Shown here in pieces: positions 12,454 through 52,727 of a stretch of DNA of 64,000 nt (position 1 is the first letter of the stretch; each line of letters starts with the position of its first letter). The DNA lies in the IMG/VR virus record IMGVR_UViG_3300028833_000077, one strand, 5' to 3'. Both the position numbers and the translations under genes were made by a program. Under the pieces are notes generated by a model, which was given only the letters and a program-made list of their open reading frames with translations, was not told the origin of the DNA and made no database searches. The stretch is from a virus. Taxonomy: Duplodnaviria; Caudoviricetes.

Positions 12454-13150
12454 AGTTGTATGTATTTAAAGGATTAGTAATTCCAGAGAATCCTTTGCAG
12501 CTTCAGTTGGCCTTGCTGATGCTGCTAGCAACAGCCTGAGTAGCTGTTGTTATTGCTGTGACAGACAGGATTGCTCCTGCTGGTCAGTTGCTGATGAGGC
12601 GTAAACCTCTGTTACTGAGAGCCCTGAAGCACTCAGCCAGCATTGACCAGGGGGGATGAACCCCAACCTGTCAAGGACAGGGGGAGGTGTGATATGTTAT
12701 CCCTGACTTATATACATACATTATATTCCCAACTTATACGCACATGATAGAAATTACTAGAATCCAGAAGTATCTTCCTCCTTTATAAATGCAATGCAAG
12801 TAGCTAAAAATAGAATCCATGACTTATACACATACACTATGTCTCATTTATATACACACATTAGGTATCTTTGATTCATACCCATACTCCAAATCCGTAG
12901 ATATCCCTGTTAACATTTGTAAAAATCCGTAGCTTTCCGTAGTAGAATCTGTTCTTTTCTGTTTATTCCTTGGCTGTCTGGATACTATTTAGTATTTATG
13001 TCCTCTCTTGACATACTAAAATGGATACTATAATAGTAGGGGGGGGATATAACCCACTCCCTAGATAGGAGGGGGCAGGTATAGATAGGTGTACCTTAAG
13101 GCTGTTCTTATACATGCATGATGTTCAAGGGCTTTATATATCTTTGCAGT

Positions 13151-13543
13151 ATGAATAGGATTCAGGCACATAATCAGGAGATTAGGAGGACTGCACAGTA
13201 TAGGGCTGAGGAGATGAAGATATTCCCCTCTCCTTTGGAGGAGAAGATGATGGCCTTGCTGGATAGGTATAATATCCCCTATGAGCTTCAGAAGATATTC
13301 TACATCAAGGCTGATGATGGATGGATAGTCAGGTACTACATAGCTGACTTCTATGTGCCTCAGGCAAGGCTCATCATTGAGGTGGATGGCAAGTTCCATG
13401 ACAAGCAGAGACAACATGACAAGAACCGCACTAAGGAGATACAACTGCATTATCCTGGTGTAGAGGTGTTCAGATGGAGGAATGAGGACTTCAAGGATGA
13501 TGGCAAGGTTGAAGCTCTCTTGGGAAAGGTGTTTGACAGGTAA
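13151..13543 (+). CDS. DUF559/Vsr-like PD-(D/E)XK endonuclease
   Basis: YIADFY...LIIEVDG.FH...D..RT motif; TATCTTTG at 13139. Confidence 0.8.
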   Translation: MNRIQAHNQEIRRTAQYRAEEMKIFPSPLEEKMMALLDRYNIPYELQKIFYIKADDGWIVRYYIADFYVPQARLIIEVDGKFHDKQRQHDKNRTKEIQLHYPGVEVFRWRNEDFKDDGKVEALLGKVFDR

Positions 13544-13659
13544 TGATGTTTCTCTTCAACTACTTAGGACTCAGGGATTTGCATTTTTCATAGGTAATGT
13601 TTTGTCGGTTGGATTTTTATTAGTACCTTTGCACCCGGTTTAACCAATGGGTAAAGCTG

Positions 13660-13983
13660 ATGAAAGGATTGGAAAGGTATTTGGCTGTACATGGGAGACA
13701 CTTCACTGAACAATTGGCTTGTGCAGTGTGCGATAGGAAATGGAGTATGCCTAAGATAAGGAGGCATACACAGAGGAGGGTATACTACAATGTGACAGGC
13801 TCTACTGATGGAGATATGATGTACCTGATGGAGACCTTCAGGCACTATCTCTCTGACTATACATGGCATAGGGGGATCACACTGGTCACTGAATGGGTAG
13901 GGGACTATAGCAAGTCTGGTGCACCTTTCTCCATGTGGGTATCTGGCCATGAAGATGACTTTGACTTGACACCTTATATATAA
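13660..13983 (+). CDS. Hypothetical protein, paralog of 42878..43294
   Basis: GLERYLAVHGRHFTEQL vs GMKRYINNYGCHFNKKL. Confidence 0.7.
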   Translation: MKGLERYLAVHGRHFTEQLACAVCDRKWSMPKIRRHTQRRVYYNVTGSTDGDMMYLMETFRHYLSDYTWHRGITLVTEWVGDYSKSGAPFSMWVSGHEDDFDLTPYI

Positions 13984-13999
13984 TGTACGTGTACATATT

Positions 14000-14095
14000 A
14001 AAAGGAGGGAGGCTTCACAGCTTCCCTCTTTCAGTTCACATACACATTATTAACTCAAAACTTACTCTTAAGAAATGAACAAAGAAATTTACTCA
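14000..14095 (-). ncRNA. Candidate small RNA 2 (ends approximate)
   Basis: Minus-strand TACATTTG box at 14101-14108, hairpin plus U-run at 14000-14030, no minus-strand ORF. Confidence 0.5.
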
Positions 14096-14152
14096 CGTTG
14101 CAAATGTAGGGAAAATATTCCTAAGTGACAAACTGCTTAGGAAAACACTAAG

Positions 14153-14251
14153 AAAAAAGAGGGCAAGCCCGATCATTGGCTTACCCTCAAAAACATAAAA
14201 CTACAAATCTAAAACAACTAAAACCTATGCAAACAAAGAAACGCTATTCTT
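14153..14251 (-). ncRNA. Candidate small RNA 1 (ends approximate)
   Basis: Minus-strand TATCTTTG box at 14257-14264; terminator stem 14159-14188 with U-run only on the minus strand. Confidence 0.55.
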
Positions 14252-14370
14252 TGCCACAAAGATACTGTTAAGTTTCCACCAGTGCAAGATGCTAAAGATT
14301 TTATTAAGACCCCCCGTTGAAGTTTCCCTATGCTAATCCTCAAAACACTATCAGGTCGCAGCAGCTGCAT

Positions 14371-17300
14371 TTACTCATCATCTGCTGTTACTACCATGTC
14401 GGGCAGGACAGAAGCAACCGTCATTATACCTACACCCTTTAAAGCCTCTTTTATGTTGGCAATCATCTTTGCCTTCTTTTTTGGATTCTCTTCAATGTAC
14501 TTCCTATAATCTACACCATAGGAATCCCCTGTAGACAACACATCCAGAAGCTCGTCGTCTGACAGATTGTCAATCACTACATTCAAATCATCTCCTACTA
14601 CACCCCCATGATCCCTGCTAATTTGAGACCTATACCGGGTGTTTTCTGAGACTTTCTCATTAAGCTTACTGCTTGTTGCTATCTTTGGGTTTTTCGGAAC
14701 CCTGTATGCTCTCTCAATCAAATCCTTTTCCCCTGGGGTCAAGAAGGATGTGTAGTAGGCTTCCTCTGCCTTATTAAGATCCTTTTTGTACTTCATCATG
14801 AGCTTTGCAGCCTTCAAGTACTTTCCATTCTTCAGGGCATCATTATACTCTTCTACATGCTTTAATGCTGCCTGTACATCATCATCATACATTCCCTTGT
14901 GGTAGTGGATCATATCTTCTCTCATTTCGTGAACTGTTGTATTCAGCTTATCGCTGAGGGGTGACACATCATTTTTGTTGAGTACTGTAGTATATTTTGA
15001 ACCATTATGGTCTAGTATTATTGGAGAGGTTTCCCCCAGTACGTTTGGAGGCCTGTCTGCAATAGCAAATCTTCCCAAAAACGGAGAATTTTGGATAAAG
15101 CGAGGATTAGGGCTATCTTTTCTAGCTGCTTCCAATCTAGGTACTACATCTTCATTAAAGTAGTTTTTAGTATATTTTGCTGCAGCTTTAGCTTGTTCAA
15201 GAGTCCAGGGTGTGCCTTGTGGTAGACTTTCCACTGTCTTCATCTGAGCCCACTCAGCAGCAGGAGCCTCTTCTGCAAATACTCTTCTATAGCCGTACCC
15301 AGGTTCCCAATTATATGCAGAAATGTTATTGAGCTCTAATCCAAGGTTATCTGCATCTGCTGGTATTAACCTTCCTCCGTTATCTGTAACTGTAGTAACT
15401 CCACTTTTTGATTTTAATATTCCACTTCCTGTCCCTCTGTAAGGAGTAGCTTTGTTGCTTCCTATTATAAAGGCATCATTTCTAGGTGTAACTAATAGTC
15501 CTGATTGTAAAGAGCCTAGAGGCAATGTTTCATCTATTTTAGGTGTTCCATACCATAGAAAACCGTCTGAATACATTGGAGTATCTTGGTATGCAGCAGA
15601 ATGCCCATCGACTTCTATTCCTATAGCAGGATCGAAAGTACCATTAGCAATGGCTTCATCTAAAGCTTTTTCTCTACTAATATAAGGCCTTCCATCTCTT
15701 GAGGATAGCAACTGCTCTAAATTATCCTCAATCTGATGTTGAGCTACAGAAGCATCTATATCTTTATATTTCTGATATGTTCTTCCTAGATCGTTGCCTT
15801 GTCTATATGCCATGTTAGGAGTATCTATTTCCACATCTCCAACTCTTGTTCTAACTTGTGGCTTAACAGTTAGATAGCCTTCAGGAACTTGGGGTCTACC
15901 TAATGGATATCTATAATTCTCAACAGCCAGTGCAGCATCTTTAGCTATGGGTTTAGCCAGTCTCCCCAATGGAGCTACCTCAAGAGCAGTGATTGGAGTA
16001 AAGTTCCCTTCTGCTGTTTCCTGTATGCCATGAGCACCAAAGCCTGCTGTCATTCCTGCGTCCAACCAAGGAAGGAGAGTAGAGGTTCCTAGTGCTCTTG
16101 ATGCTGCATTGGTAAATAAAGGAGAGGACACTGCTGCATCACCCAGCCATCCTAATCCAGCTGTAACTGCCTGTCCTGCCCCAGTCTCTGCTGCAGCACC
16201 AAGTATAGGTGCTGAAGCTACTGCAAAAGGTACAGCACTTGCTGCATATCCTAACTGGGCAAGACCTGGATGCTCCCTCTCCCAAGCTGCATTAGCTGCT
16301 CCTCCCCTGATAGCCTTTCTCTCTAGATGGGTATTCTGAGACCTACCATTAGCTACAGCCGTGGCATCATTGGATTCAACTGGGAAGTTAAGGAATGTAT
16401 CCTGAAGGGCCTTTCTCTGTCTAGCTACATTCTCTCCATTGGCTACTATATCGCCAAGGGTATAAGGTTGCCACCCATTAGTAGCATTCAGTCCTATGTT
16501 CATCCTCTGAGAAGGTTCTGTAGTACCATCATAAAGATTACCTCCAAGACCATGCTCCCATTTTCTACTATTGCGTGCAAATGTGATCATCTTGCGAACA
16601 GCAGGACTACCAGTTCTATACAGTTCAGCCTCTGTCTTGCCAGTTCTCTTCTTCAGTTCGGTAAGTCTGCCGCGATGGGAAGGTTTAATATGTATCCCCC
16701 CACCTTTAGCATATTCATCAGCCATCTGAAGAAGAGAACTGTCATTGCCTCTTGTAGCCCATAGGAGGTCAAGCACATCATTGCCTGTAGTAGGATGGAA
16801 TGTTGGTATCCTAAGATTACTGCCTAGCATCTCCATTGTCCTGTTGAACCTGTTTATGTTATCAAATGACTCTTGGAGCTTCTGAGCCCTTATCTCCTCT
16901 GGAGACACCTCATGGGTACTTACATAGGCATCCTCATCAGGAACTACCTGAGGAAGCATGGTTGTGTTCTGCTCTTGAAGGAGATAGGGATTGTATACAA
17001 AGGTGTTGTCAGGACTTTGTAAGGTAATGTCATTAGGTGCTGTTGGAGTAGGTCTTACCCCTAACATGAAGTGTGCCTGCTCCCTCTTTCTCCTATTGGC
17101 CAGGCCTTTCTTGAACTTCGGGTCTTTACTGGTAGCATCCATCTGTCTTGCTGCCTCAGGAAGATTCCCTGCCTCTAATGCAGCAAATAGCTTGGGAGAG
17201 TTGGCTCTGTTGAAGTCATAGTTGTACTTGTACATCAACAATGCCTCTTTGGAGCTATCAGGCAGACCCTTCCAATTGGGTATATTGGATTTTGCCCATT

Positions 17301-18189
17301 TCTCTCTGTCGGACAGTTCCTGTCTTACTGCCATCCTATTGTCAGCAGCAGACCATTTGTTGCCTCTCTTTCTATAGAGGTCATGCCATTTGGATGCAGT
17401 GAGTCCTGAACCTAAGGTCATCTTGCCATCACCTATGTCTTCAGGTTGCTTATTGAATCCTTCCTCCTTAATGGTCATATCTACAAGTTTGTCTGAGACT
17501 ATAGAGCCACCTCCTCTAAAGAGATTGCCTCCTTCAGCATGTTTGTTACCATAGACTGTTACGTTGGGTAATACTCCTCCCCAAGGTATGCCATCATATA
17601 TAGGCAGGCTTCCATCAGCTTCTCTAAGGACTACTCCATTATCTTCAGCATTCTCCAAATATGACTTTCTATCGTCCATGCTAACAGGCCCTCTGTAGCC
17701 ATCAGGAGACATAGTGAATGTATGATAGTCAGGAGACCATGTTCCACCAACCAGTCCTTGTGGATTAGTTAGAGGATTCCTGACTCCAGAGTAGATACTA
17801 CCATAATTGCCAATACTCTTTGAGCTGAATGTAGGATGATACACTGTTTTGAATTCATTAGAGAAATGTGCAGTTGGATCTCCTTTGAGCATCTTCCATG
17901 CTTCTTCAGGATACTTGTTGAAGTATGCCTCATAGTCATAGGTATTATCCTCATCAGGCCTGATGCCCTTGTGTTCAGCTACTTGTCTCTTCCAACTATT
18001 ATAGCTCCAGTCTGTATCAATAGGGCCTCCTTCAGCAAACTCATTGTATTTAGCCCTGATGTCACTCAGATTGGTAATGCCATTCTGGACAGCCACCTTC
18101 ATCATAGCTGCCTTCTCCTTCATTGACAGTCTGTCCCATGCGTCCTTGGGAGCCAGAAAGTCAGGGTCTATCCACTGTACCTCCTTCAT
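14371..18189 (-). CDS. Large multidomain (probably virion/cargo) protein with a GH24 phage-lysozyme domain
   Basis: IKEEGF...D..G..TLG.G...SPKLFAAL..GN..EAA.QM...GLANRR.RE; modules separated by [FYH]xxGG. Confidence 0.75.
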   Translation of the reverse strand: MKEVQWIDPDFLAPKDAWDRLSMKEKAAMMKVAVQNGITNLSDIRAKYNEFAEGGPIDTDWSYNSWKRQVAEHKGIRPDEDNTYDYEAYFNKYPEEAWKMLKGDPTAHFSNEFKTVYHPTFSSKSIGNYGSIYSGVRNPLTNPQGLVGGTWSPDYHTFTMSPDGYRGPVSMDDRKSYLENAEDNGVVLREADGSLPIYDGIPWGGVLPNVTVYGNKHAEGGNLFRGGGSIVSDKLVDMTIKEEGFNKQPEDIGDGKMTLGSGLTASKWHDLYRKRGNKWSAADNRMAVRQELSDREKWAKSNIPNWKGLPDSSKEALLMYKYNYDFNRANSPKLFAALEAGNLPEAARQMDATSKDPKFKKGLANRRKREQAHFMLGVRPTPTAPNDITLQSPDNTFVYNPYLLQEQNTTMLPQVVPDEDAYVSTHEVSPEEIRAQKLQESFDNINRFNRTMEMLGSNLRIPTFHPTTGNDVLDLLWATRGNDSSLLQMADEYAKGGGIHIKPSHRGRLTELKKRTGKTEAELYRTGSPAVRKMITFARNSRKWEHGLGGNLYDGTTEPSQRMNIGLNATNGWQPYTLGDIVANGENVARQRKALQDTFLNFPVESNDATAVANGRSQNTHLERKAIRGGAANAAWEREHPGLAQLGYAASAVPFAVASAPILGAAAETGAGQAVTAGLGWLGDAAVSSPLFTNAASRALGTSTLLPWLDAGMTAGFGAHGIQETAEGNFTPITALEVAPLGRLAKPIAKDAALAVENYRYPLGRPQVPEGYLTVKPQVRTRVGDVEIDTPNMAYRQGNDLGRTYQKYKDIDASVAQHQIEDNLEQLLSSRDGRPYISREKALDEAIANGTFDPAIGIEVDGHSAAYQDTPMYSDGFLWYGTPKIDETLPLGSLQSGLLVTPRNDAFIIGSNKATPYRGTGSGILKSKSGVTTVTDNGGRLIPADADNLGLELNNISAYNWEPGYGYRRVFAEEAPAAEWAQMKTVESLPQGTPWTLEQAKAAAKYTKNYFNEDVVPRLEAARKDSPNPRFIQNSPFLGRFAIADRPPNVLGETSPIILDHNGSKYTTVLNKNDVSPLSDKLNTTVHEMREDMIHYHKGMYDDDVQAALKHVEEYNDALKNGKYLKAAKLMMKYKKDLNKAEEAYYTSFLTPGEKDLIERAYRVPKNPKIATSSKLNEKVSENTRYRSQISRDHGGVVGDDLNVVIDNLSDDELLDVLSTGDSYGVDYRKYIEENPKKKAKMIANIKEALKGVGIMTVASVLPDMVVTADDE

Positions 18190-18330
18190 ATCCTAATCTA
18201 TTCTGCTGCAAAGATAAACAATATATTCCACTTCTCCAAATATCTTATAAAGAAAGACAGGAAGATTATATAATCCTCCTGCCTCCTCGATTAACCCCTA
18301 AAACATGAAAAACAACAAACTATGAAAAAA

Positions 18331-18798
18331 CTACTTAATGATCAAGGTTATCTTCTCTCCTCTGACATATGCCTCATGGAGCTTACTGTAGAGCTTCAGG
18401 AATGTGGCCTTTGAGTCAGTTACCATTCCTACCACATCATTCTTCCCCACCAGTATACATCCTGCACTGTCTGCTGCTGTAGAGCCTGGGTGTATCAGTA
18501 TGCCTGAGAATCCTTTCACAGGCTCTATCCTTGGCATCCTTGCTCCACGGCAGTTCATGACATACCATGGCTTCAGGGAGTACTTGGGACTAACAACATC
18601 CATTCGTACAATATATGTTCCTGTTGGTATGGCAGTCCTGGCAGCCACCTTCACCTTCTTTATCTTATCTTCAGACATGGATTGGTCAAGATGGCGGTCC
18701 TTGTCCTCACATGTATTGCAGAAGAATGTACCATTGATATACAGTCTGCCAATGGTGTATGTCTCCTTCTTCCATTTCCTGTCTATCAGTATCTCCAT
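18331..18798 (-). CDS. DUF5675-type putative endolysin
   Basis: TIGRLYING...TAIP.G.Y...F.GILIH.G.T..DS.GCILVG; next to a holin-like gene. Confidence 0.75.
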   Translation of the reverse strand: MEILIDRKWKKETYTIGRLYINGTFFCNTCEDKDRHLDQSMSEDKIKKVKVAARTAIPTGTYIVRMDVVSPKYSLKPWYVMNCRGARMPRIEPVKGFSGILIHPGSTAADSAGCILVGKNDVVGMVTDSKATFLKLYSKLHEAYVRGEKITLIIK

Positions 18799-18804
18799 TG
18801 TATA

Positions 18805-19221
18805 CTATCCTTTTTTAGCTCTCTTCTTTGTACCTACCTCCACACCTGCATCTGAGAACTTCACATCTGACTGGAAGTCCATCTTCCTTAGTTTGCAGGT
18901 CGCATCCAAACAAATGCTGCCCAATATGTTAATCATCTGCTGCTGCAGTTGGCTCACCTGTGTCTTGAGGCTGTCATTCTCCTTTTGCAGAAGGTCTATC
19001 TTCTGGTTCTGGGACATAATGACAACCTCCATGGTTTCCTTCTGAGTAGCCAAGTTGGTCTCCATCATCTTCTTATATGTATCGAATGAATCACTCATGT
19101 TTTTGATCTGCTGGGCATCGACCTCTGAGTTGAACTTCCGCCTTGTCAGGAGGAAAGTCACCACACTTGTTACTATTGTGCAGAAAAGGCCGACTATTGT
19201 TGAAATAATCCCGGTACCCAT
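18805..19221 (-). CDS. Holin-like protein (N-terminal TM plus coiled coil)
   Basis: IISTIVGLFCTIVTSVVTFLLTRRK; directly upstream of the endolysin. Confidence 0.6.
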   Translation of the reverse strand: MGTGIISTIVGLFCTIVTSVVTFLLTRRKFNSEVDAQQIKNMSDSFDTYKKMMETNLATQKETMEVVIMSQNQKIDLLQKENDSLKTQVSQLQQQMINILGSICLDATCKLRKMDFQSDVKFSDAGVEVGTKKRAKKG

Positions 19222-19392
19222 CGTGCTTATTACTTTGCCATTATATACTCTATCTGTTTCTGATACAAAGGTACACATTATATATATAGGCTCCTATACC
19301 ATTAAGGGCTCTATTATTCAGAACTAACACTTTTGCTAAGGTCTGCAATATAGAGAGGGACAATTCGTATCTTTGCCACTGATAAAATATTC

Positions 19393-23653: not shown

Positions 23654-23924
23654 ATGTCATGACCATCATATATGCTGTCCTGTTCTACTTCATAGTAGGC
23701 ATCTTGACTACACTGACTTTCAAGAGGTATGGGGGAGGGTACATACTGGCAGGATGGCTGTGGCCTCTGACATGGGCACTGATGGTGCTCCTCGTTGTAG
23801 AGAAGTTCATAAAAAGGTTTATTATTCATACGCTTTAATATATTTAGGTTCGTTTCTTAGACCCTGTCTGTGAAGATCGGAAAGTAACTTTTTTCCATAA
23901 CGATGACTTGAGAATTTTGTTTTT

Positions 23925-25070
23925 TCATTGTTTTCCCCCACCTGTCGAGAGATAGCTGGGGGTTTTTGATATAGCATCTACCACAGTCTCATCAAGCAGC
24001 TTGGCATACACAGCTTCTGTAATCCTTGTGGATGAATGCCCGCATATCCTTGAAACTATCTTCATGTCCACCCCTTCATTGAGCAACATGGTGGCTCCAG
24101 TGTGCCTTGCCCAATGCGTGCTCACAGGCTTGTCTATGCCTGCTGCCTGTGCAACAACCTTGAGATACTCATTGTACTTCACATTGGAAATGATGGGCAG
24201 CTTGTTCCCATACTTCTCCAACACCTCAAGAGCCTTATGGTGCATGGGTATGGTGAAGGGCTTGGCAGTCTTGATCCTGCTTCCCATGTAGACCTTCATG
24301 CCCTTGACAGTGCTGATGCCTCCCACATCAAAGTCCTTGAGGTCTGTGTAGCTCAGGCAGGTGTATGTCTGAAACACAAATACATCCCTGACTCTCTCAA
24401 GACTCTTGGTGGGCAGCTTCACATCCATCAGATGCCTGAACTCCTCTGGAGTGAGGTACTTCTCTATGCCTCTGCCTTGCTTGTTCCTGTCTATGGAGAG
24501 TCTGCTGTAGGGGTTCCTCTGCATAAGTCCTTCCTCTATGGCATCCCTGATGAAGGAGTTGAGGAACCTGTGGTAATTGTTCCACTTGGAGTAGGGCTCC
24601 ATCCCCTTGGCAGTCAAATACTCATCATACTTGATGATGTTCTCCTCAGTAATAGCCTCCACCTCCACGATCCCTCCCCACTCTGAGAAGAGCCTTATGA
24701 ACCTGTCATACCTCTCTTGGGTGTCCTTCTCCTTGCCATACTTCCTCACCCTTGCCCTTGCCTTGCAGAAGTCTATGAAGGATGTACCCTTGGGCTTGAG
24801 CCTCTCATTGAGTGTGTCAAGACTACCAGAGGCCAATGCCTCCCTGACCCTTACAAGAAGATCATTGAGTATCTGGCTCAACTGCATGGCATCAGGGCAG
24901 TTGACGATGCAGCCATTCCTCCATTGGTTGGGATAGAGTGATATTCCTGTGGAGATGAACTTGCACTTTCCCTTCAGTGACACCCTGAGTTCCAATGCAG
25001 CCTTTCTCTTCTGTGTGGCTGTTTTCCTCCTGTCATATATGAATGTTATCTTGGGCTGTTTGTTAATCAT
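23925..25070 (-). CDS. int: Tyrosine integrase (Bacteroidetes type: arm-binding, SAM and catalytic domains)
   Basis: H.ARHT, GHS..T..Y motifs, RD.F.F..YT.L.Y.D, N-terminal ELRVS...ISTGI. Confidence 0.9.
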   Translation of the reverse strand: MINKQPKITFIYDRRKTATQKRKAALELRVSLKGKCKFISTGISLYPNQWRNGCIVNCPDAMQLSQILNDLLVRVREALASGSLDTLNERLKPKGTSFIDFCKARARVRKYGKEKDTQERYDRFIRLFSEWGGIVEVEAITEENIIKYDEYLTAKGMEPYSKWNNYHRFLNSFIRDAIEEGLMQRNPYSRLSIDRNKQGRGIEKYLTPEEFRHLMDVKLPTKSLERVRDVFVFQTYTCLSYTDLKDFDVGGISTVKGMKVYMGSRIKTAKPFTIPMHHKALEVLEKYGNKLPIISNVKYNEYLKVVAQAAGIDKPVSTHWARHTGATMLLNEGVDMKIVSRICGHSSTRITEAVYAKLLDETVVDAISKTPSYLSTGGGKQ

Positions 25071-25330
25071 CCTAAATAAAGTTTAATTATTTGTTAATGG
25101 GTGGTTTTAGTATACAAAGGTGTACAACTTTCTTAAGAGGGGTGTACAGAATTTGTATAGTTTTCAATGTGATGTGTACAGTATTTGTATAGTGTTCTAC
25201 CCTCCCAGCTGAGGGGACTGTAAGCAAAGAATCTTCAAGAGGCAGCTGTCTCCAGCTGTATATAATAAGAGTATCAGGAAGCAGACTGATTTGTCATAAC
25301 TCCCTGATACTGTGAATTCAAGCCCCTAAG

Positions 25331-25402
25331 TAGTCGATAGGGGAATCGAACCCCTATGCCAAGATTGAGAATCTTGTATCCTAACCATTAGATGAATCGA
25401 CC
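25331..25402 (-). tRNA. tRNA-Glu (CTC)
   Basis: GGTCGAT/ATCGACT acceptor stem, CAAGA-TTCTCAA-TCTTG anticodon arm, GGTTCGATTCC T-arm. Confidence 0.93.
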
Positions 25403-45631: not shown

Positions 45632-48600
45632 ATGGAGAACATAAGATGGAACAAGTGCCAGACTCCACTGGAGGAGCTCTGTTGCACTGTAGAGGATAAG
45701 GTAATCAGATTTCAAGATACACCAAAGGAAGTTCAGGAGAATTTCTGGGATTTCATCAACAATGTGCCCTTCATCAGATGGATGATTTCCCCTGACAGGC
45801 CATTGGTGTCTGAGCTCCCAAGGGATGAGCAGGGTAGGGCAATCATTGATGTGACCAAGCCGCCTATACTGGAGGATACGGAGTTCTTCAGGCAAATGGC
45901 TTTCAAGTGGCAAGAAGTAAGACAGTATACCTCATTAAGGCCAAATAGGAATCCTCAGAGTGACTTTGGCAAATGGCTTCTTGAAGAGAGGAAGAGGAGT
46001 TGGGATGGACTGGTGAATCCCAACACAGGCATGTGGATAACTGGAGACCAGTACTTCTTCCTGAACTACTGCCCCATTCAGCTTATCAGGAAGGATGAGA
46101 CTGGCAAGAACAACCGTGTCATAGACTTTCCTGATTTTTGGGATGGCCACTTCCTGATTTATCATTACCTACAGAAGGCCAGACAGTCTGGGCATCATGC
46201 AGCAGAGCTTGCATCGCGTGGTAAAGGTAAGGCACACCCCTATAGCCAGACAGTAATGACTCCTGATGGACAGAAACTGTGGCGAGACATCAAGGTAGGG
46301 GACCTCCTGTATGATGAGAGGGGTGGAACCACTAGAGTGATTGTCATTCCTTTTGATGATGTAGCACCAGTCTATGAGCTTACTCTTGCAGATGGCAGAA
46401 AGGTCAGGTGCTCTGAAGGGCATCTTTGGAATGTGTACTGGCATGGATGGAGCAACAATGAGATAGTCACTATAGACACAGCCAAGGTACGTGACAAATA
46501 TGTAACCAGTAGGAAGATATGTCCCAGGAACCCAAAGGGTATAGAGTACCATATGAGCATTCCTGCTTGTGACGAGGTTGAGATGCCCTACAGAGAAGTC
46601 CCTATTGACCCATATACATTAGGAGTACTCTTGGGAGATGGAAGCTTCAGGTCACAAACTGCCAAGAACTATGCCAGACTTACCAAGACCGTAGAGGATT
46701 GGGAGGAAATGAAGGACCATATTCCATATGACTGGGAGAGGGTAAACAAGGGTAGAGATATAATCATCCGTTCAGAAGGTATAGTGGCTATACTACAAGA
46801 GCTTGGCCTTTGGGGAAAGTTGTCTACAGAGAAGCATATACCAGAGTGCTACATCAACAACTCCATACATGTCAGGAAAGAGCTCCTCCGTGGATTGATG
46901 GATACTGATGGAAGTATGCATGAGGCAAGGATTGAGCTGGACTTGAGTTCCTATCAGCTCATCCAAGATATCATCAGGATATGCCAGTCTTTGGGATATA
47001 GCTACAGGCTCCACAGTAGGGTGGGAAAATACAAATCCAATGGAGTGACTCATGTGTGCAATACTTCATACAGGTTGAAAATCTACACACAGAAGATAAG
47101 AGGCTACTTGTCCAGGAAGAATGCCATGCTTGATGCTAGAAGCAAAAGCAACTATGCTAACAGTAAGATACGAGGCATAAAGATAATCAATGTCGAATAT
47201 GTGGGTACAGAAAGATGCAAGTGTGTCACTGTGGACAATCCTACCCACCTTTATCTGATAGGTGACTATATTGTTACCCACAACTCATACTGTGGTGCAG
47301 AGCTGCTGACAAAGAGATTCCTTTTTGGAGAGAGTACCCTTGTCAGGAAAAAGGTGCAGTGTGTGGTGACAGCAGCGGATAGGAAGTATATCTATGGTGC
47401 CAACCAGATACTCAATATGTTCTGCAGCAATGTTGACTTTATTGCAGCCAACACTCAATTCCCGTCAAGCAGGCTTGTAGACTCTGCACAGTCACTGACT
47501 TGGGTGTCTGGCTACAAAGACAAGACTGGTGTAAGAAAGGGTTCTGGAAACAGTCTTATGGGTATTACCTCAGGAGATGACCAGTCCAAGTTGAATGGTT
47601 CCCGTGGTGTGCTGTACCTAATTGAGGAGGCAGGTATCTTCAAGAACCTCATGAGCCTGTACCAGATGATACGGCCATCAGTGGAGGATGGTACCTCTGT
47701 CTATGGGCAGATATTTGCATATGGCACCAGTGGTGATGATATGTCTGACTTTACATCCCTTCAGGAGATTATGTACAACCCGAGAGGTTACAATATGCAC
47801 CCACTGCCTAATGTGTATGACAAAGAGGGACAGGGCAGGCCAGAGTTCACCTTCTTCTATCCAGCATACATGAACCGTTCGGGGTGTATGGACAAGGATG
47901 GTAACTCAGATATTACAAAAGCATTACTTGAGATATTGATGGATAGGTACAATGTCAAGTACAATTCTACTGACATCAATGCCATCACCAAACGTGTGTC
48001 CCAGTATCCCATCACCCCTCAAGAGGCCATTATCAGGTCACATGGCAGCATCTTCCCAGTCACTGAACTCAATGAGAGACTGAACCAAATAGACAACAAT
48101 CCCAATGAATATGATGATGTCTATGTTGGCAATCTGGTGATGAATTCCAAGGATGGCAGTGTAGAGTTCAAGCCTACTTCAGACCAACCTATCAGGGAAT
48201 TTCCAACCAAGGACAATAAAGTGGTGGGTGCAATAGAGATATACTGTATGCCACAGAAGGGGCCTGACGGCAAGATTCCTCCTGGGAGATATATTGCAGG
48301 TGCCGACCCATTCATCAATGATACCGCCAATACCATGTCATTGGGTTCCTTCTTGATGCTGGACACATGGACAGACACACTGGTTATGGAATATACAGGA
48401 AGACCTATGTTTGCTGATGACTATTATGAGATATGTAGGTTGGCTTGTTTGTTCTACAATGCCACAGTACTCTTTGAGGCAAACAAAAAAGGTTACTTCC
48501 CATACTTCACCCAGAAGAACAGCTCACATCTGCTGGCTGATACTCCCGAGTACCTGCTAGACAAACAGCTCATCAAGGGCTTGGGATACGGCAATACTAG

Positions 48601-48994
48601 GAAAGGTGTAACCACTACAGTACCCATCAAGAACTATGGCTTTGGACTCATTAGGGACTGGCTGCTGAAACCTGTTGTGAAGATTGTCAAGAATGAGCAG
48701 GGAGAGGATGAAGAGATAACCATATCCAATCTATACAACATCAGGAACAGGGCTTTGTTGAAGGAGCTGATACTGTATAACCCACAAATCAATGTAGACC
48801 GTATCATGGCTTTGGTGATGCTGATGATATACAGAGAGGAGAAGATGGCCTTATTCCAAGGCAACTTGAAGCAGGAATTACAACTCTCTGAGATGGAGGC
48901 AGCTGAATATTGGGATAAGAACTATCCTGGGAAGAAGGATGTGTATGGCAGTAAAAAGTTTGACAGCTATTCCTGGGATAAGGGCAATTTCTAA
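45632..48994 (+). CDS. terL: Terminase large subunit with intein
   Basis: Walker A SRGKGK|S split by the intein, Walker B LIEEAG, nuclease IAGADP...DRIMAL. Confidence 0.93.
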   Translation: MENIRWNKCQTPLEELCCTVEDKVIRFQDTPKEVQENFWDFINNVPFIRWMISPDRPLVSELPRDEQGRAIIDVTKPPILEDTEFFRQMAFKWQEVRQYTSLRPNRNPQSDFGKWLLEERKRSWDGLVNPNTGMWITGDQYFFLNYCPIQLIRKDETGKNNRVIDFPDFWDGHFLIYHYLQKARQSGHHAAELASRGKGKAHPYSQTVMTPDGQKLWRDIKVGDLLYDERGGTTRVIVIPFDDVAPVYELTLADGRKVRCSEGHLWNVYWHGWSNNEIVTIDTAKVRDKYVTSRKICPRNPKGIEYHMSIPACDEVEMPYREVPIDPYTLGVLLGDGSFRSQTAKNYARLTKTVEDWEEMKDHIPYDWERVNKGRDIIIRSEGIVAILQELGLWGKLSTEKHIPECYINNSIHVRKELLRGLMDTDGSMHEARIELDLSSYQLIQDIIRICQSLGYSYRLHSRVGKYKSNGVTHVCNTSYRLKIYTQKIRGYLSRKNAMLDARSKSNYANSKIRGIKIINVEYVGTERCKCVTVDNPTHLYLIGDYIVTHNSYCGAELLTKRFLFGESTLVRKKVQCVVTAADRKYIYGANQILNMFCSNVDFIAANTQFPSSRLVDSAQSLTWVSGYKDKTGVRKGSGNSLMGITSGDDQSKLNGSRGVLYLIEEAGIFKNLMSLYQMIRPSVEDGTSVYGQIFAYGTSGDDMSDFTSLQEIMYNPRGYNMHPLPNVYDKEGQGRPEFTFFYPAYMNRSGCMDKDGNSDITKALLEILMDRYNVKYNSTDINAITKRVSQYPITPQEAIIRSHGSIFPVTELNERLNQIDNNPNEYDDVYVGNLVMNSKDGSVEFKPTSDQPIREFPTKDNKVVGAIEIYCMPQKGPDGKIPPGRYIAGADPFINDTANTMSLGSFLMLDTWTDTLVMEYTGRPMFADDYYEICRLACLFYNATVLFEANKKGYFPYFTQKNSSHLLADTPEYLLDKQLIKGLGYGNTRKGVTTTVPIKNYGFGLIRDWLLKPVVKIVKNEQGEDEEITISNLYNIRNRALLKELILYNPQINVDRIMALVMLMIYREEKMALFQGNLKQELQLSEMEAAEYWDKNYPGKKDVYGSKKFDSYSWDKGNF
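46232..47284 (+). mobile_element. 351-aa class-3-type intein with LAGLIDADG endonuclease
   Basis: Starts AHPY, has HLW, CVTVD, IVTHN|S; LGVLLGDG and LRGLMDTDG motifs. Confidence 0.9.
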
Positions 48995-50359: not shown

Positions 50360-52727
50360 ATGGCTGGTAAATTAGGTAAATTTCAAAAGCAGACATTTAG
50401 TTATTGGAAAGGCGATACATTGAAGAAGCACCACATGGGTGCCCTCTTCCTTCGTAAGCCTCAGATGGCAACTGACCTGATGGTTCAGCTGCTTGCCTGG
50501 CATAAAGGTAAGACACTGAACACATTCCTGTCACAGTTCCCCACAAAGACTTTTGACACGGATGATGAGTACACATGGCAGATCATTGGCAGTGCCCGTA
50601 GGAACTATGCACTGGTAGAGGCAAGGGACATTGATGGTAATGTCATTGATGAGAACTACCCCAACAATGTTGGTATTGGTGGTGAGCCATTCTACCTGGT
50701 GTTCAAGGAGGACTGGATTGGTGACTCCGAGATTGTGGTTGGTGAACTCAATGAGCTCTATCCCATGAGGCACCTTGAGGGCCATGGCCGCAATGAAGGC
50801 TCAAACACCGTGTACAGGGTTTCAGCCTGGGGTTCTGTCCGTGGTGGTATTCCTGTAGAGGAACTGCTTCCTGGCAAGAGGTTCTCAGTTGAGTATGCAC
50901 CTGTTGAGGGTGAGCTGTCTCGTAAGGCAGGTACCGTAAGGTTCTCTAGCCCCATCAGCATGCGTAATGAGTTCTCTCACATCCGTATCCACACCAAGGT
51001 ATCTGGTGCCCTCCTGAATGACAAGGTGGCATTTGGTGTACCTGTAGTCCGTGAGACTCCCAATGGAGGTAAGAAGGATGTGGTGGACATGTGGATGCAT
51101 GAGGTTCAGTGGCAGCTGGAGCAGCAGTGGGATGAGTACAAGAACTACATCCTTGCATTTGGCCGTAGCAACAGGGATGCCAATGGTGAGTACCATGACT
51201 TTGGTAAGTCAGGTGAGGCCATCCGCACTGGTGCAGGTTTGTATGAGCAGATGGAGTATGGTAACACAGACTTCTACAACACCTTCTCACTGAAGAGGTT
51301 GATGGAGAACATCTACAACATCAGCCGTGCAAACCTTGACTTCAATCAGCGTAACTTCATCATCAAGACTGGTGAGATGGGTGCTATCCAGTTCTCTAAG
51401 GCAGCTATGACTGAAGGTTCAGGTTGGAGTCCTATCACTTATGAGTACAGTGCCTCTGAGCTGGGCATCATGTCTCCCACCACAAGCAAGATGACTCCTC
51501 ATGGAGGCGCATTCAAGATGGTTGCTCCTCAGGTGACTGAGTTCATTGCTCCTAACGGTGCATATGTGAAGATTGATGTTGACAGCTACTATGATGATCC
51601 TGTCCGCAACAAGATTCAGCATCCTCTTGGAGGTCCTGCCATGTCTTACCGTTATGACATCTTTGACATTGGTACCATGGATCAGCCCAACATCTTCAAG
51701 TGTGCTGTCAAGGGTCAGGAAGGTGACTTTACGAGTTATGAGTGGGGATTAGCGGCCTAGAGTGGCCTTTACGACATTTCTGAGTTCCCACCCTTCCTCA
51801 GGAACAGAATAAGGAAAATAAACGAGGTTAATTGCTGGAAGTTCCTTAGAGCTTCAAAAGGTTTTTACAAGGTTTCAAACATTTAAATATGGAAACAGAA
51901 GAGATTTGGAAAAGCTTACCCGAGTATGTTGGCATAGAGGTTAGCAACTTAGGCAGAGTAAGAAAGAACACAAGAAAACATCATAACGATGTAATCAGTG
52001 AGTTCTGTAAAGATAGAGATGGTTACTGTAGATGCACAGTATTCCTTCCAGACGGGAGAAAGACTTCAGCACCAGTACACAGGTTAGTAGCAAAAGCGTT
52101 CATTGACAATCCTGATAATAAGACCTGTGTAAACCATAAGGATAATGATAGGACAAACAATAGAGTTGAGAATCTAGAATGGGTGACACCAAAGGAAAAT
52201 GTCAGACATTCATTCTTGCATGGTAACAGAAAGGTACATAAGGAGGTTCCCACTAATACAGTGCTGACAGACTTCCAAGTGTTCCAAATAGACAAACTGA
52301 GAACCATATACTCAGTCAGTCAGATAGCCAAGCTGTTCAATATCAAATATACCACTCTAAAGAACATCATAAGAAAAGTAAAAACCAGAAGATTGGATAA
52401 CCAGCAGCCAAGCATATATCAAGATATATATGAAGGTTCAACGACTATCCCGGAAGGGAGTAAGGCTTAAGTAAGTCTGAAATGCCTCGCCTGCACAGAG
52501 TGCAGTGAAGATATAGTCTGAACTTCCATGAAAGTGGAAGAGAGTACATGGAAACGATGTATTCGCAACACATAAATGTCAGAAATCCATTTACAGGACA
52601 AATGGGCAATCCTAACATGAGTCACGATGAAGACTCCGCAACAATCCATAAGTTTACAACAACTGGTGTTTGCGTGTTAGACCCAACCAGAACGATGAGT
52701 TTCATCCCCAGTATCTTACAGGGATAG
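50360..52727 (+). CDS. Major capsid protein, two exons (50360-51749 and 52579-52727; 512 aa spliced)
   Basis: Exon 2 reads RNPFTGQ...HDEDSA...DPTRTMS.IP, a crAss-like MCP C-terminus; junction gives EWG-F-RNPF. Confidence 0.9.
51750..52578 (+). mobile_element. Group I intron in the MCP gene
   Basis: IGS at 51776-51791; P AATTGCTGGAA, Q AACCAGCAG, R GTTCAACGACTA, S AAGATATAGTC; terminal G. Confidence 0.92.
51889..52470 (+). CDS. Intron-encoded NUMOD4-HNH homing endonuclease
   Basis: EIWK..VSN.GRV, VHRLVA.AF, VNHKD..R.NN...NLEW. Confidence 0.9.
   Translation: METEEIWKSLPEYVGIEVSNLGRVRKNTRKHHNDVISEFCKDRDGYCRCTVFLPDGRKTSAPVHRLVAKAFIDNPDNKTCVNHKDNDRTNNRVENLEWVTPKENVRHSFLHGNRKVHKEVPTNTVLTDFQVFQIDKLRTIYSVSQIAKLFNIKYTTLKNIIRKVKTRRLDNQQPSIYQDIYEGSTTIPEGSKA

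Follow-up and report, generated by a model that had tools for sequence, protein, structure and literature searches.

Gene-less promoter-tail-terminator units in the accessory gene array of a crAss-like phage are candidate sources of short RNAs

The stretch of phage DNA analysed here (64,000 nucleotides, hereafter the window) carries, in the gap between two convergent genes, two back-to-back minus-strand units, each with a TAnnTTTG box, a conserved tail motif and an intrinsic terminator. Judged from their sequence, the units are probably, though by no means certainly, gene-less expression cassettes (promoter, conserved 3' tail and terminator) that are likely transcribed into RNAs of about 100 nt. 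They would be copies, lacking a gene, of the cassette from which the minus-strand array of accessory and lysis genes is built. Such a cassette would consist of a host-type (sigma-ABfr) promoter, a short leader, the conserved 3' tail (a stop codon, a U-rich motif ending in UUCAU and an AT-rich spacer) and an intrinsic terminator. In related phages the tail together with a GNRA hairpin forms the 3'UTR of a gene that converges on the gene for a 107-aa protein, and where the convergent gene is missing a promoter lies directly before the tail, as in the window. Host RNA polymerase is expected to start near 14251 and 14095 and to stop near 14153 and 13998, and the two predicted RNAs of about 100 nt would each consist of a single-stranded U-rich 5' part and the terminator hairpin. 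Function would reside in the conserved tail, which would act by pairing or by binding protein.

The source phage is crAss-like; such phages are among the most abundant viruses of the human and animal gut. The window encodes a Crass_capsid major capsid protein (50360-51760, E 2e-144), a portal, a DGR reverse transcriptase, a tyrosine integrase (23925-25070) and a tRNA-Glu (25330-25402); its source contig is listed at 149,104 bp in the protein index. In front of the genes lies the -7 box of Bacteroidota, TAnnTTTG, in many cases accompanied by TTTG 20 nt further upstream. An insertion of the intein type in a virion-module gene is suggested by the LAGLIDADG and Hom_end domains found at residues 403-505 of a 1120-aa protein encoded at 45632-48994. 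DNA similar to the locus was absent from the phage record collection, exact copies and close protein relatives were absent from IMG/VR, and the genome collection yielded a single locus only, in a MAG labelled Bacilli. The gap and its surroundings comprise the following features:

13118-13543, plus strand: gene for a DUF559 (Vsr-like) endonuclease, the upstream partner of the 107-aa gene
13660-13983, plus strand: gene for the 107-aa protein, a conserved family of unknown function, with its own promoter at 13601-13631
13984-14370 (387 bp): intergenic gap between the convergent 1272-aa gene (minus strand) and 107-aa gene (plus strand)
14371-18189, minus strand: gene for a 1272-aa lysozyme-domain protein, with stop codon TAA
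18256-18330, minus strand: 3'UTR of the DUF5675 gene, with two U-rich ...TTCAT motifs and its own terminator
18331-19278, minus strand: DUF5675 and 157-aa genes

None of the relatives examined has the 1272-aa gene at the equivalent position; its promoter in the window (18240-18209) has the TTTG-N20 spacing also found in unit 2. For the C-terminal part of its product, the closest relatives lie on two crAss-like contigs (L001 and L002), where TAG has to be read as Gln for the genes to be translated; between 1 and 26 kb the window gives no sign that recoding is needed. For the gap, stop-codon recoding (TAG as Q, TGA as W) was rejected since it opened no credible frame, and the 1272-aa gene ends in TAA. 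The DUF559 endonuclease gene lies directly upstream of the 107-aa-family gene in about 16 of the loci examined, and the pair looks like a mobile cassette. Within the gap, the two units are composed as follows:

14288-14257, minus strand: unit 1 promoter, with CTTG at 14288-14285, a 20-nt spacer and the -7 box TATCTTTG at 14264-14257
14246-14227, minus strand: unit 1 tail motif (a copy of motif A), TAG-CG-TTTCTTTGTT-TGCAT, with TTTCTTTGTT at 14241-14232
14188-14153, minus strand: terminator 1, a hairpin (14188-14159) with an 11-bp stem, seven G-C pairs and an 8-nt loop, followed by T6
14152-14136 and 14141-14120: palindromes CTTAG-N7-CTAAG and CCTAAG...CTTAGG, which flank the TTTG of the unit 2 -33 element
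14132-14101, minus strand: unit 2 promoter, TTTG-N20-TACATTTG
14091-14075, minus strand: unit 2 motif A, TAA-A-TTTCTTTGTTCAT, with TTTCTTTGTTCAT at 14087-14075
14053-14042, minus strand: motif B, TTAATAATGTGT, exact in L007 and partial in L042 and L032
14028-14000: terminator 2, bidirectional, a hairpin (14028-14005) with a 10-position stem and a GUGA (GNRA) loop on the minus strand, followed by TTTT

Two ORF-less minus-strand units with a TAnnTTTG box and an intrinsic terminator had been described in a first-pass annotation of the window, and boxes and hairpins were indeed found in both, with no minus-strand ORF of more than seven aa between box and terminator. A phage upstream element, claimed by the same annotation, was not recovered: no part of it other than the -33 TTTG could be recognised. 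On its own, TAnnTTTG is only slightly enriched (49 matches in the window, 37.8 expected); the bipartite pattern TTTG-N18-22-TAnnTTTG gives seven matches against 0.89 expected, two of them in the gap. The 10-mer TTTCTTTGTT lies about 15 nt past the -7 box in each unit and occurs nowhere else in the window (two matches, 0.17 expected). Aligned with each other, the units stay in register at a period of about 156 nt, and their global alignment scores -4, compared with -27.7 ± 6.4 for shuffled sequences. Folding is more stable than in shuffles (z of -3.9 for unit 1 and -2.9 for unit 2), mainly owing to the terminators; motif A falls in a predicted single-stranded 5' region, and outside the terminator no conserved pairing was found. 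Taken together, the statistics, the folds and the ORF scan indicate that the described anatomy is real. Two features of unit 1 count against its reading as a separate cassette, namely its location in the 3'UTR of the 1272-aa gene, whose mRNA terminator 1 also ends, and its -33 element CTTG, which matches TTTG at only three of four positions. The likeness of the unit 1 box and leader to those of the 1272-aa gene was left out of the evidence because it mostly reflects a TTTGCA promoter extension that is common here. The palindromes at 14152-14120 form a candidate operator. A similar CTTAG/CTAAG palindrome adjoins promoters in L042, L036, L040, L044 and L022. In relatives CTTAG-N7-CTAAG lies between the promoter of a minus-strand unit and the plus-strand promoter of a 200-aa gene, and could serve these two divergent promoters as a common operator.

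The functional products of the gap could in principle be peptides, from plus-strand micro-ORFs (MQTKK... and MNKEI...) or from a minus-strand 50-aa ORF (14370-14218), a proposal that we regard as barely credible. The plus-strand strings of leader and ATG quoted in the first-pass annotation are present, each ATG is preceded by an A-rich leader, and the start of the 50-aa ORF overlaps the stop of the 1272-aa gene (TAAATG). However, no plus-strand TAnnTTTG box lies upstream of the micro-ORFs, their ATG is replaced in relatives (by CGAC in L019 and L021 and by CTG in L042), and the corresponding peptides have lengths of 2 to 41 aa and no sequence in common. As to the 50-aa ORF, L005 shares only its first 11 codons, and homology in L009 covers only the last 25 or so, from about 14293. 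Tiny GTG- or TTG-started minus-strand ORFs just after the boxes were also discarded, as they are not conserved and are absent in L018.

The 107-aa protein belongs to a family of at least 67 relatives with invariant blocks. It is confidently modelled as a soluble-looking six-helix protein; the family has no Pfam, PHROG or PDB match, and the model no informative structural match. Thirty-four IMG/VR loci with a gene of this family were compared, and the IMG/VR loci together with the window, L007, L009 and L010 provided 34 distinct downstream sequences. A hairpin related to terminator 2 is found within a few bases of the stop codon in 27 of these 34. Its minus-strand loop is always GNRA-like in the relatives (GUGA, GCAA or GGGA), the better U-tract is on the minus strand, and compensatory changes preserve six of eight consensus pairs. 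The single mismatch in the stem of terminator 2 is A.C on the minus strand and G.U on the plus strand; across the sequences, as read by eye, this asymmetry is balanced between the strands, so that the hairpin does not single out one of them and behaves as a bidirectional terminator. Motif A, in the form TAA(T/A)TTTCTTTTTTCAT or similar, is located 40-70 nt upstream of the hairpin on the minus strand in relatives, and with at most two mismatches it was detected in eight of 17 related lineages (0.47 expected from shuffles). Unit 2 is 74% identical over 103 nt (blastn) to L032, L033 and L035, with 107-aa proteins that are only 40% identical. Counted against the cassette reading are L036, a gene-less locus with the hairpin and no unit, and the seven of 34 downstream sequences that have neither.

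Given this linkage, the unit 2 RNA might act in cis on the 107-aa gene in the manner of lambda OOP or par RNA I/RNA II, by sharing a bidirectional terminator and pairing with the 3' end of the mRNA; we consider this very unlikely. The tail and hairpin are tightly linked to the 107-aa family (the same 27 of 34 loci), in relatives the U-tract on the minus strand extends over the final codons of the gene, and OOP itself, 77 nt long, is an antisense RNA transcribed convergently from its own promoter (PMC12197685). In the window, however, the U-tract ends at 14000 and the 107-aa stop lies at 13983, and a 20-nt spacer between stop and hairpin limits the overlap with the 107-aa mRNA to the shared hairpin. 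Moreover, motif A showed no preference for the start region of the cognate 107-aa gene (duplex energies of -9.96 for cognate and -9.74 for non-cognate pairs, p 0.33), a test of little power since motif A and the start region are both conserved. Nor was there a cognate preference for the start region of the linked 200-aa gene (p 0.98).

The layout of unit 2, in which a stop codon, a U-rich ...UUCAU motif, a spacer and a GNRA hairpin follow one another and abut the 107-aa gene, recurs in distant crAss-like phages. The usual synteny in relatives is the 107-aa gene and the hairpin, followed by the convergent array (a membrane protein gene in some loci only, the gene for the endolysin-like protein DUF5675 and the 157-aa gene), and then by the 200-aa gene and the integrase. 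These genes recur in the window, interrupted by additional insertions that include the 1272-aa gene. In loci with a convergent gene, motif A lies 0-45 nt past the stop codon of that gene, i.e. in its 3'UTR, and three unrelated families occupy this place. Where the hairpin is kept and the convergent gene is absent, a TAnnTTTG box is positioned 13-36 nt upstream of motif A in four of five lineages: the window group, L018 (TTTG-N21-TACCTTTG), L007/8 (TATATTTG) and L042 (TACTTTTG). No lineage with a convergent gene ending there has such a box before motif A. The tail of the DUF5675 3'UTR is of the same kind as those of the units, but attached to a gene; after it comes the 1272-aa gene promoter. 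With the tail at 18256-18330 and the inserted 1272-aa gene, the minus strand from 19.3 to 14.0 kb thus reads as a row of promoter-(gene)-tail-terminator cassettes, the last two of them empty.

Similar stand-alone units had also been proposed at about 1.6, 18.3 and 23.9 kb. A scan of the window for a box and a perfect-stem terminator without an ORF returned only unit 1; unit 2 escaped it because of the one A.C mismatch in its stem. The supposed unit at 18.3 kb is the ordinary DUF5675 3'UTR with its related U-rich ...CAT motif, and no minus-strand box lies near the positions at 1.6 and 23.9 kb. The dispersed arsenal envisaged in the first-pass annotation was therefore not confirmed and reduces to one further 3'UTR with the same motif. 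Near the last of these positions (23829-23928), a 23-codon ORF starting with ATGAAAAAACAAA overlaps the integrase stop codon and is followed by a 66-aa minus-strand ORF (23829-23631), with no TAnnTTTG box nearby.

Near-identical copies of the units (97-100% identity) were found on three metagenomic contigs from other samples, L009, L010 and L046, together with the DUF559 endonuclease gene and the 107-aa gene; L046 ends inside unit 2, and in L010 the endonuclease gene is represented by its 3' end alone. Upstream of the units the contigs differ, with the gene for a 1336-aa ART-PolyVal protein in L009 and 52-, 137- and 399-aa genes in L010. Homology to the window begins at about 14293 in L009, just upstream of the unit 1 promoter, and at about 14356 in L010. 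L005, on the other side, has a near-identical copy of the final 570 bp of the 1272-aa gene; the identity continues for 35 nt beyond the stop codon, to 14339, and the sequences are unrelated thereafter. The place where homology switches partner is a single feature:

14339-14356: 18-nt stretch common to the window, L005 and L010

On these alignments the stretch marks a mosaic joint, the units travel with the 107-aa gene/DUF559 cassette and not with the 1272-aa gene, and the module of units, 107-aa gene and DUF559 gene has recombined into three or more distinct neighbourhoods. In L005 the final 185 or so codons for the 1272-aa protein correspond to a separate gene start (L005:1-1540 compared with window 14339-14928), and consecutive gene starts on that contig carry repeats of two motifs, each about 25 nt long; the protein hence looks modular in its C-terminal part.

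Among the window, L009 and L010, the units (14036-14293, 258 nt) differ pairwise at 7, 1 and 6 sites (0.4-2.7%). The 107-aa gene differs at 20-23 sites, 17-19 of which are third codon positions (17-19 of 108, or 16-18%), so that the divergence of the units is 6-40 times below that of these third positions. Differences in the units are confined to free positions of the boxes (TATC or TACC) and to spacers. There are none in the box consensus, the -33 TTTG, motifs A and B or either stem; the unit 1 tail motif is invariant, and the unit 1 box of L009 and L010 (TACCTTTG) is changed at the unconstrained n position. The comparative data thus indicate that the units are conserved rather than chance occurrences. 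The three sequences are equidistant in the 107-aa gene but not in the units; these unequal genealogies show that recombination has occurred, and the low divergence of the units may hence partly reflect a younger common ancestor and not selection.

It is conceivable, albeit doubtful, that the units are passive scars or insulators, that is, cassettes with deleted ORFs that now serve as tandem terminators separating convergent transcription units, with the short RNA as a by-product. Both units retain a stop codon before motif A, as where real genes end in relatives, removing the genes from the lysis operon would leave just this arrangement of promoter and tail, the edges of the units coincide with mosaic joints, and recombination could account for the low divergence. 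Such scars would not be expected to keep the promoter consensus intact in four separate gene-less lineages, nor would all substitutions among close copies avoid the functional motifs; motifs A and B, moreover, are conserved even though terminator function needs neither.

A more specific role was assigned to the units in the first-pass annotation, namely as trans-acting phage sRNAs whose U-rich ...CAU seed prevents translation by pairing across host start codons (those of secreted or surface proteins with AUGAAAAAAGAAA-type starts), the units forming part of a dispersed set. This role is unlikely on the present data. Motif A with its CAU is conserved far beyond chance and lies in a predicted single-stranded 5' region, and the host-encoded sRNAs FopS and GibS of Bacteroides work in exactly this way (PMC11697453, PMC7366714). 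On the other hand, the motif is of low complexity and mirrors a generic gene start: its reverse complement is the start found most often in this phage. Elsewhere in the window it mostly matches the strand opposite the start codon of a listed ORF (e.g. 1502 and 6960), and the other claimed members of the set are ordinary 3'UTRs or lack promoters. Duplexes were predicted between the units and the start regions of 86 ORFs, crudely called in the window, with internal sites and dinucleotide-shuffled units as controls. Start regions paired no better than internal sites for unit 1 (-14.8 and -15.9 kcal/mol, respectively) or unit 2 (-13.0 and -14.2 kcal/mol), and the five best duplexes showed no clear excess over shuffled units (unit 1, -23.3 compared with -20.9 ± 1.2; unit 2, -20.9 compared with -20.8 ± 1.2). 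The expected enrichment of complementarity at start codons was hence not seen among these phage start regions. The statement that no gene start in the window matches has to be corrected, as the ORF start at 1502 (minus strand), read by eye, pairs with the unit 2 motif at 13 of 14 positions; this pairing is no better than in shuffled controls. Co-variation was not found either. Of the original proposal, the stand-alone, ORF-less modules resembling transcription units are retained, since they are conserved in relatives, whereas the antisense action at translation starts finds no pairing preference in its favour. Anti-start-codon action is a reasonable but unsupported hypothesis, not specifically favoured by the data, and the finding of no target in the duplex predictions also counts against the cassette explanation.

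A broader proposal, also unlikely and to the same degree, is that the tail defines a conserved crAss RNA family (UUUCUUUKUUCAU motif plus GNRA terminator) acting in translation. In Crassvirales this RNA would arise either by release of the 3' end of the lysis-cassette mRNA or by transcription from promoters of its own. It would bind over AUG-purine-rich start sites of the MKK/MKE type, which are typical of Bacteroidales secreted proteins or of the genes of the phage itself, so as to reprogramme translation in infection or lysogeny; two stand-alone copies would then lie in the window.

Irrespective of the target, the gene-less cassettes can be compared with known systems. GibS and FopS of Bacteroides thetaiotaomicron have a sigma-ABfr promoter, an AT-rich single-stranded 5' part, a Rho-independent terminator and no ORF, and the multicopy FopS pairs next to start codons of susC mRNAs (PMC7366714, PMC11697453). 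The units have the same build; they are, however, phage-borne and not host-encoded, and their tail doubles as a gene 3'UTR in relatives. Compared with the features used to define intergenic sRNAs in Bacteroidota (PMC7366714), the units have a Rho-independent terminator and, at the level of sequence, a sigma-ABfr promoter. Several 3'UTR-derived sRNAs are known, with 21 candidates in B. thetaiotaomicron (PMC7366714) and CisR (PMC13250501). The units resemble them in that one segment is an mRNA 3' end in some genomes and has its own promoter in others, as deduced here from DNA comparisons. Phage sRNAs are a known class (OOP, sar and E. coli prophage sRNAs), and the review that covers them contains no Bacteroidota or crAss-like example (PMC12197685). 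Lambda OOP, treated in the review of phage antisense RNAs, overlaps the coding end of cII (PMC12197685). Like OOP, each unit would give a short phage transcript, predicted here, with its own promoter and terminator and convergent with a neighbouring gene. Unlike OOP, the overlap in the window comprises at most the shared terminator and leaves the coding 3' end free, the U-tract reaching the last codons only in relatives, and the conserved motif is at the 5' end, away from the overlap. A par-like type I toxin-antitoxin system does not fit either, as the convergent gene encodes what looks like a soluble six-helix protein of 107 aa and not a small hydrophobic toxin.

Rfam gave no match to the units at the gathering score (best E-values 1.3-1.7), and no covariance model places them in the FopS/GibS family. 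With E up to 10 only chance-level rows appeared; the Bacteroides sRNAs among them were BTnc060 (18.6 bits, cut-off 228.9) and BTnc231 (15.3 bits, cut-off 80.4). No CRISPR-repeat family was among these rows; a suspected likeness of terminator 1 to a Cas13b repeat was set aside. Morons are independent promoter-gene-terminator cassettes inserted between the genes of lambdoid phages. The units share with them a self-contained promoter and terminator, the position between conserved genes and a mosaic distribution among relatives; they differ in having no ORF of more than seven aa inside and in occurring as two in tandem. By analogy, the units might be described in lambdoid terms as morons without a gene.

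In the literature searched, no regulatory RNA was found described for crAss-like phages. The locus offers a candidate that is conserved, mobile and putatively promoter-driven, with exact predicted ends. It also suggests that the accessory and lysis array is built of repeated promoter-tail-terminator cassettes that are filled, emptied and exchanged. If the RNAs are inert, the locus would still be a clear example of cassette turnover at conserved non-coding joints.

A further slot without an evident gene was observed on the other strand in some relatives. In L040 (2300-2960) and L044 (2320-3030), as well as in L039 and partly in L022, a plus-strand TAYCTTTG promoter follows the 107-aa-family gene. 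It is followed by 450-600 nt without an evident long reading frame on inspection by eye; apart from a tRNA in L044 (2841-2909), no Rfam family was detected in the slot at the gathering score. Long blocks of the slot are conserved between L040 and L044, and it may represent an undescribed structured RNA.
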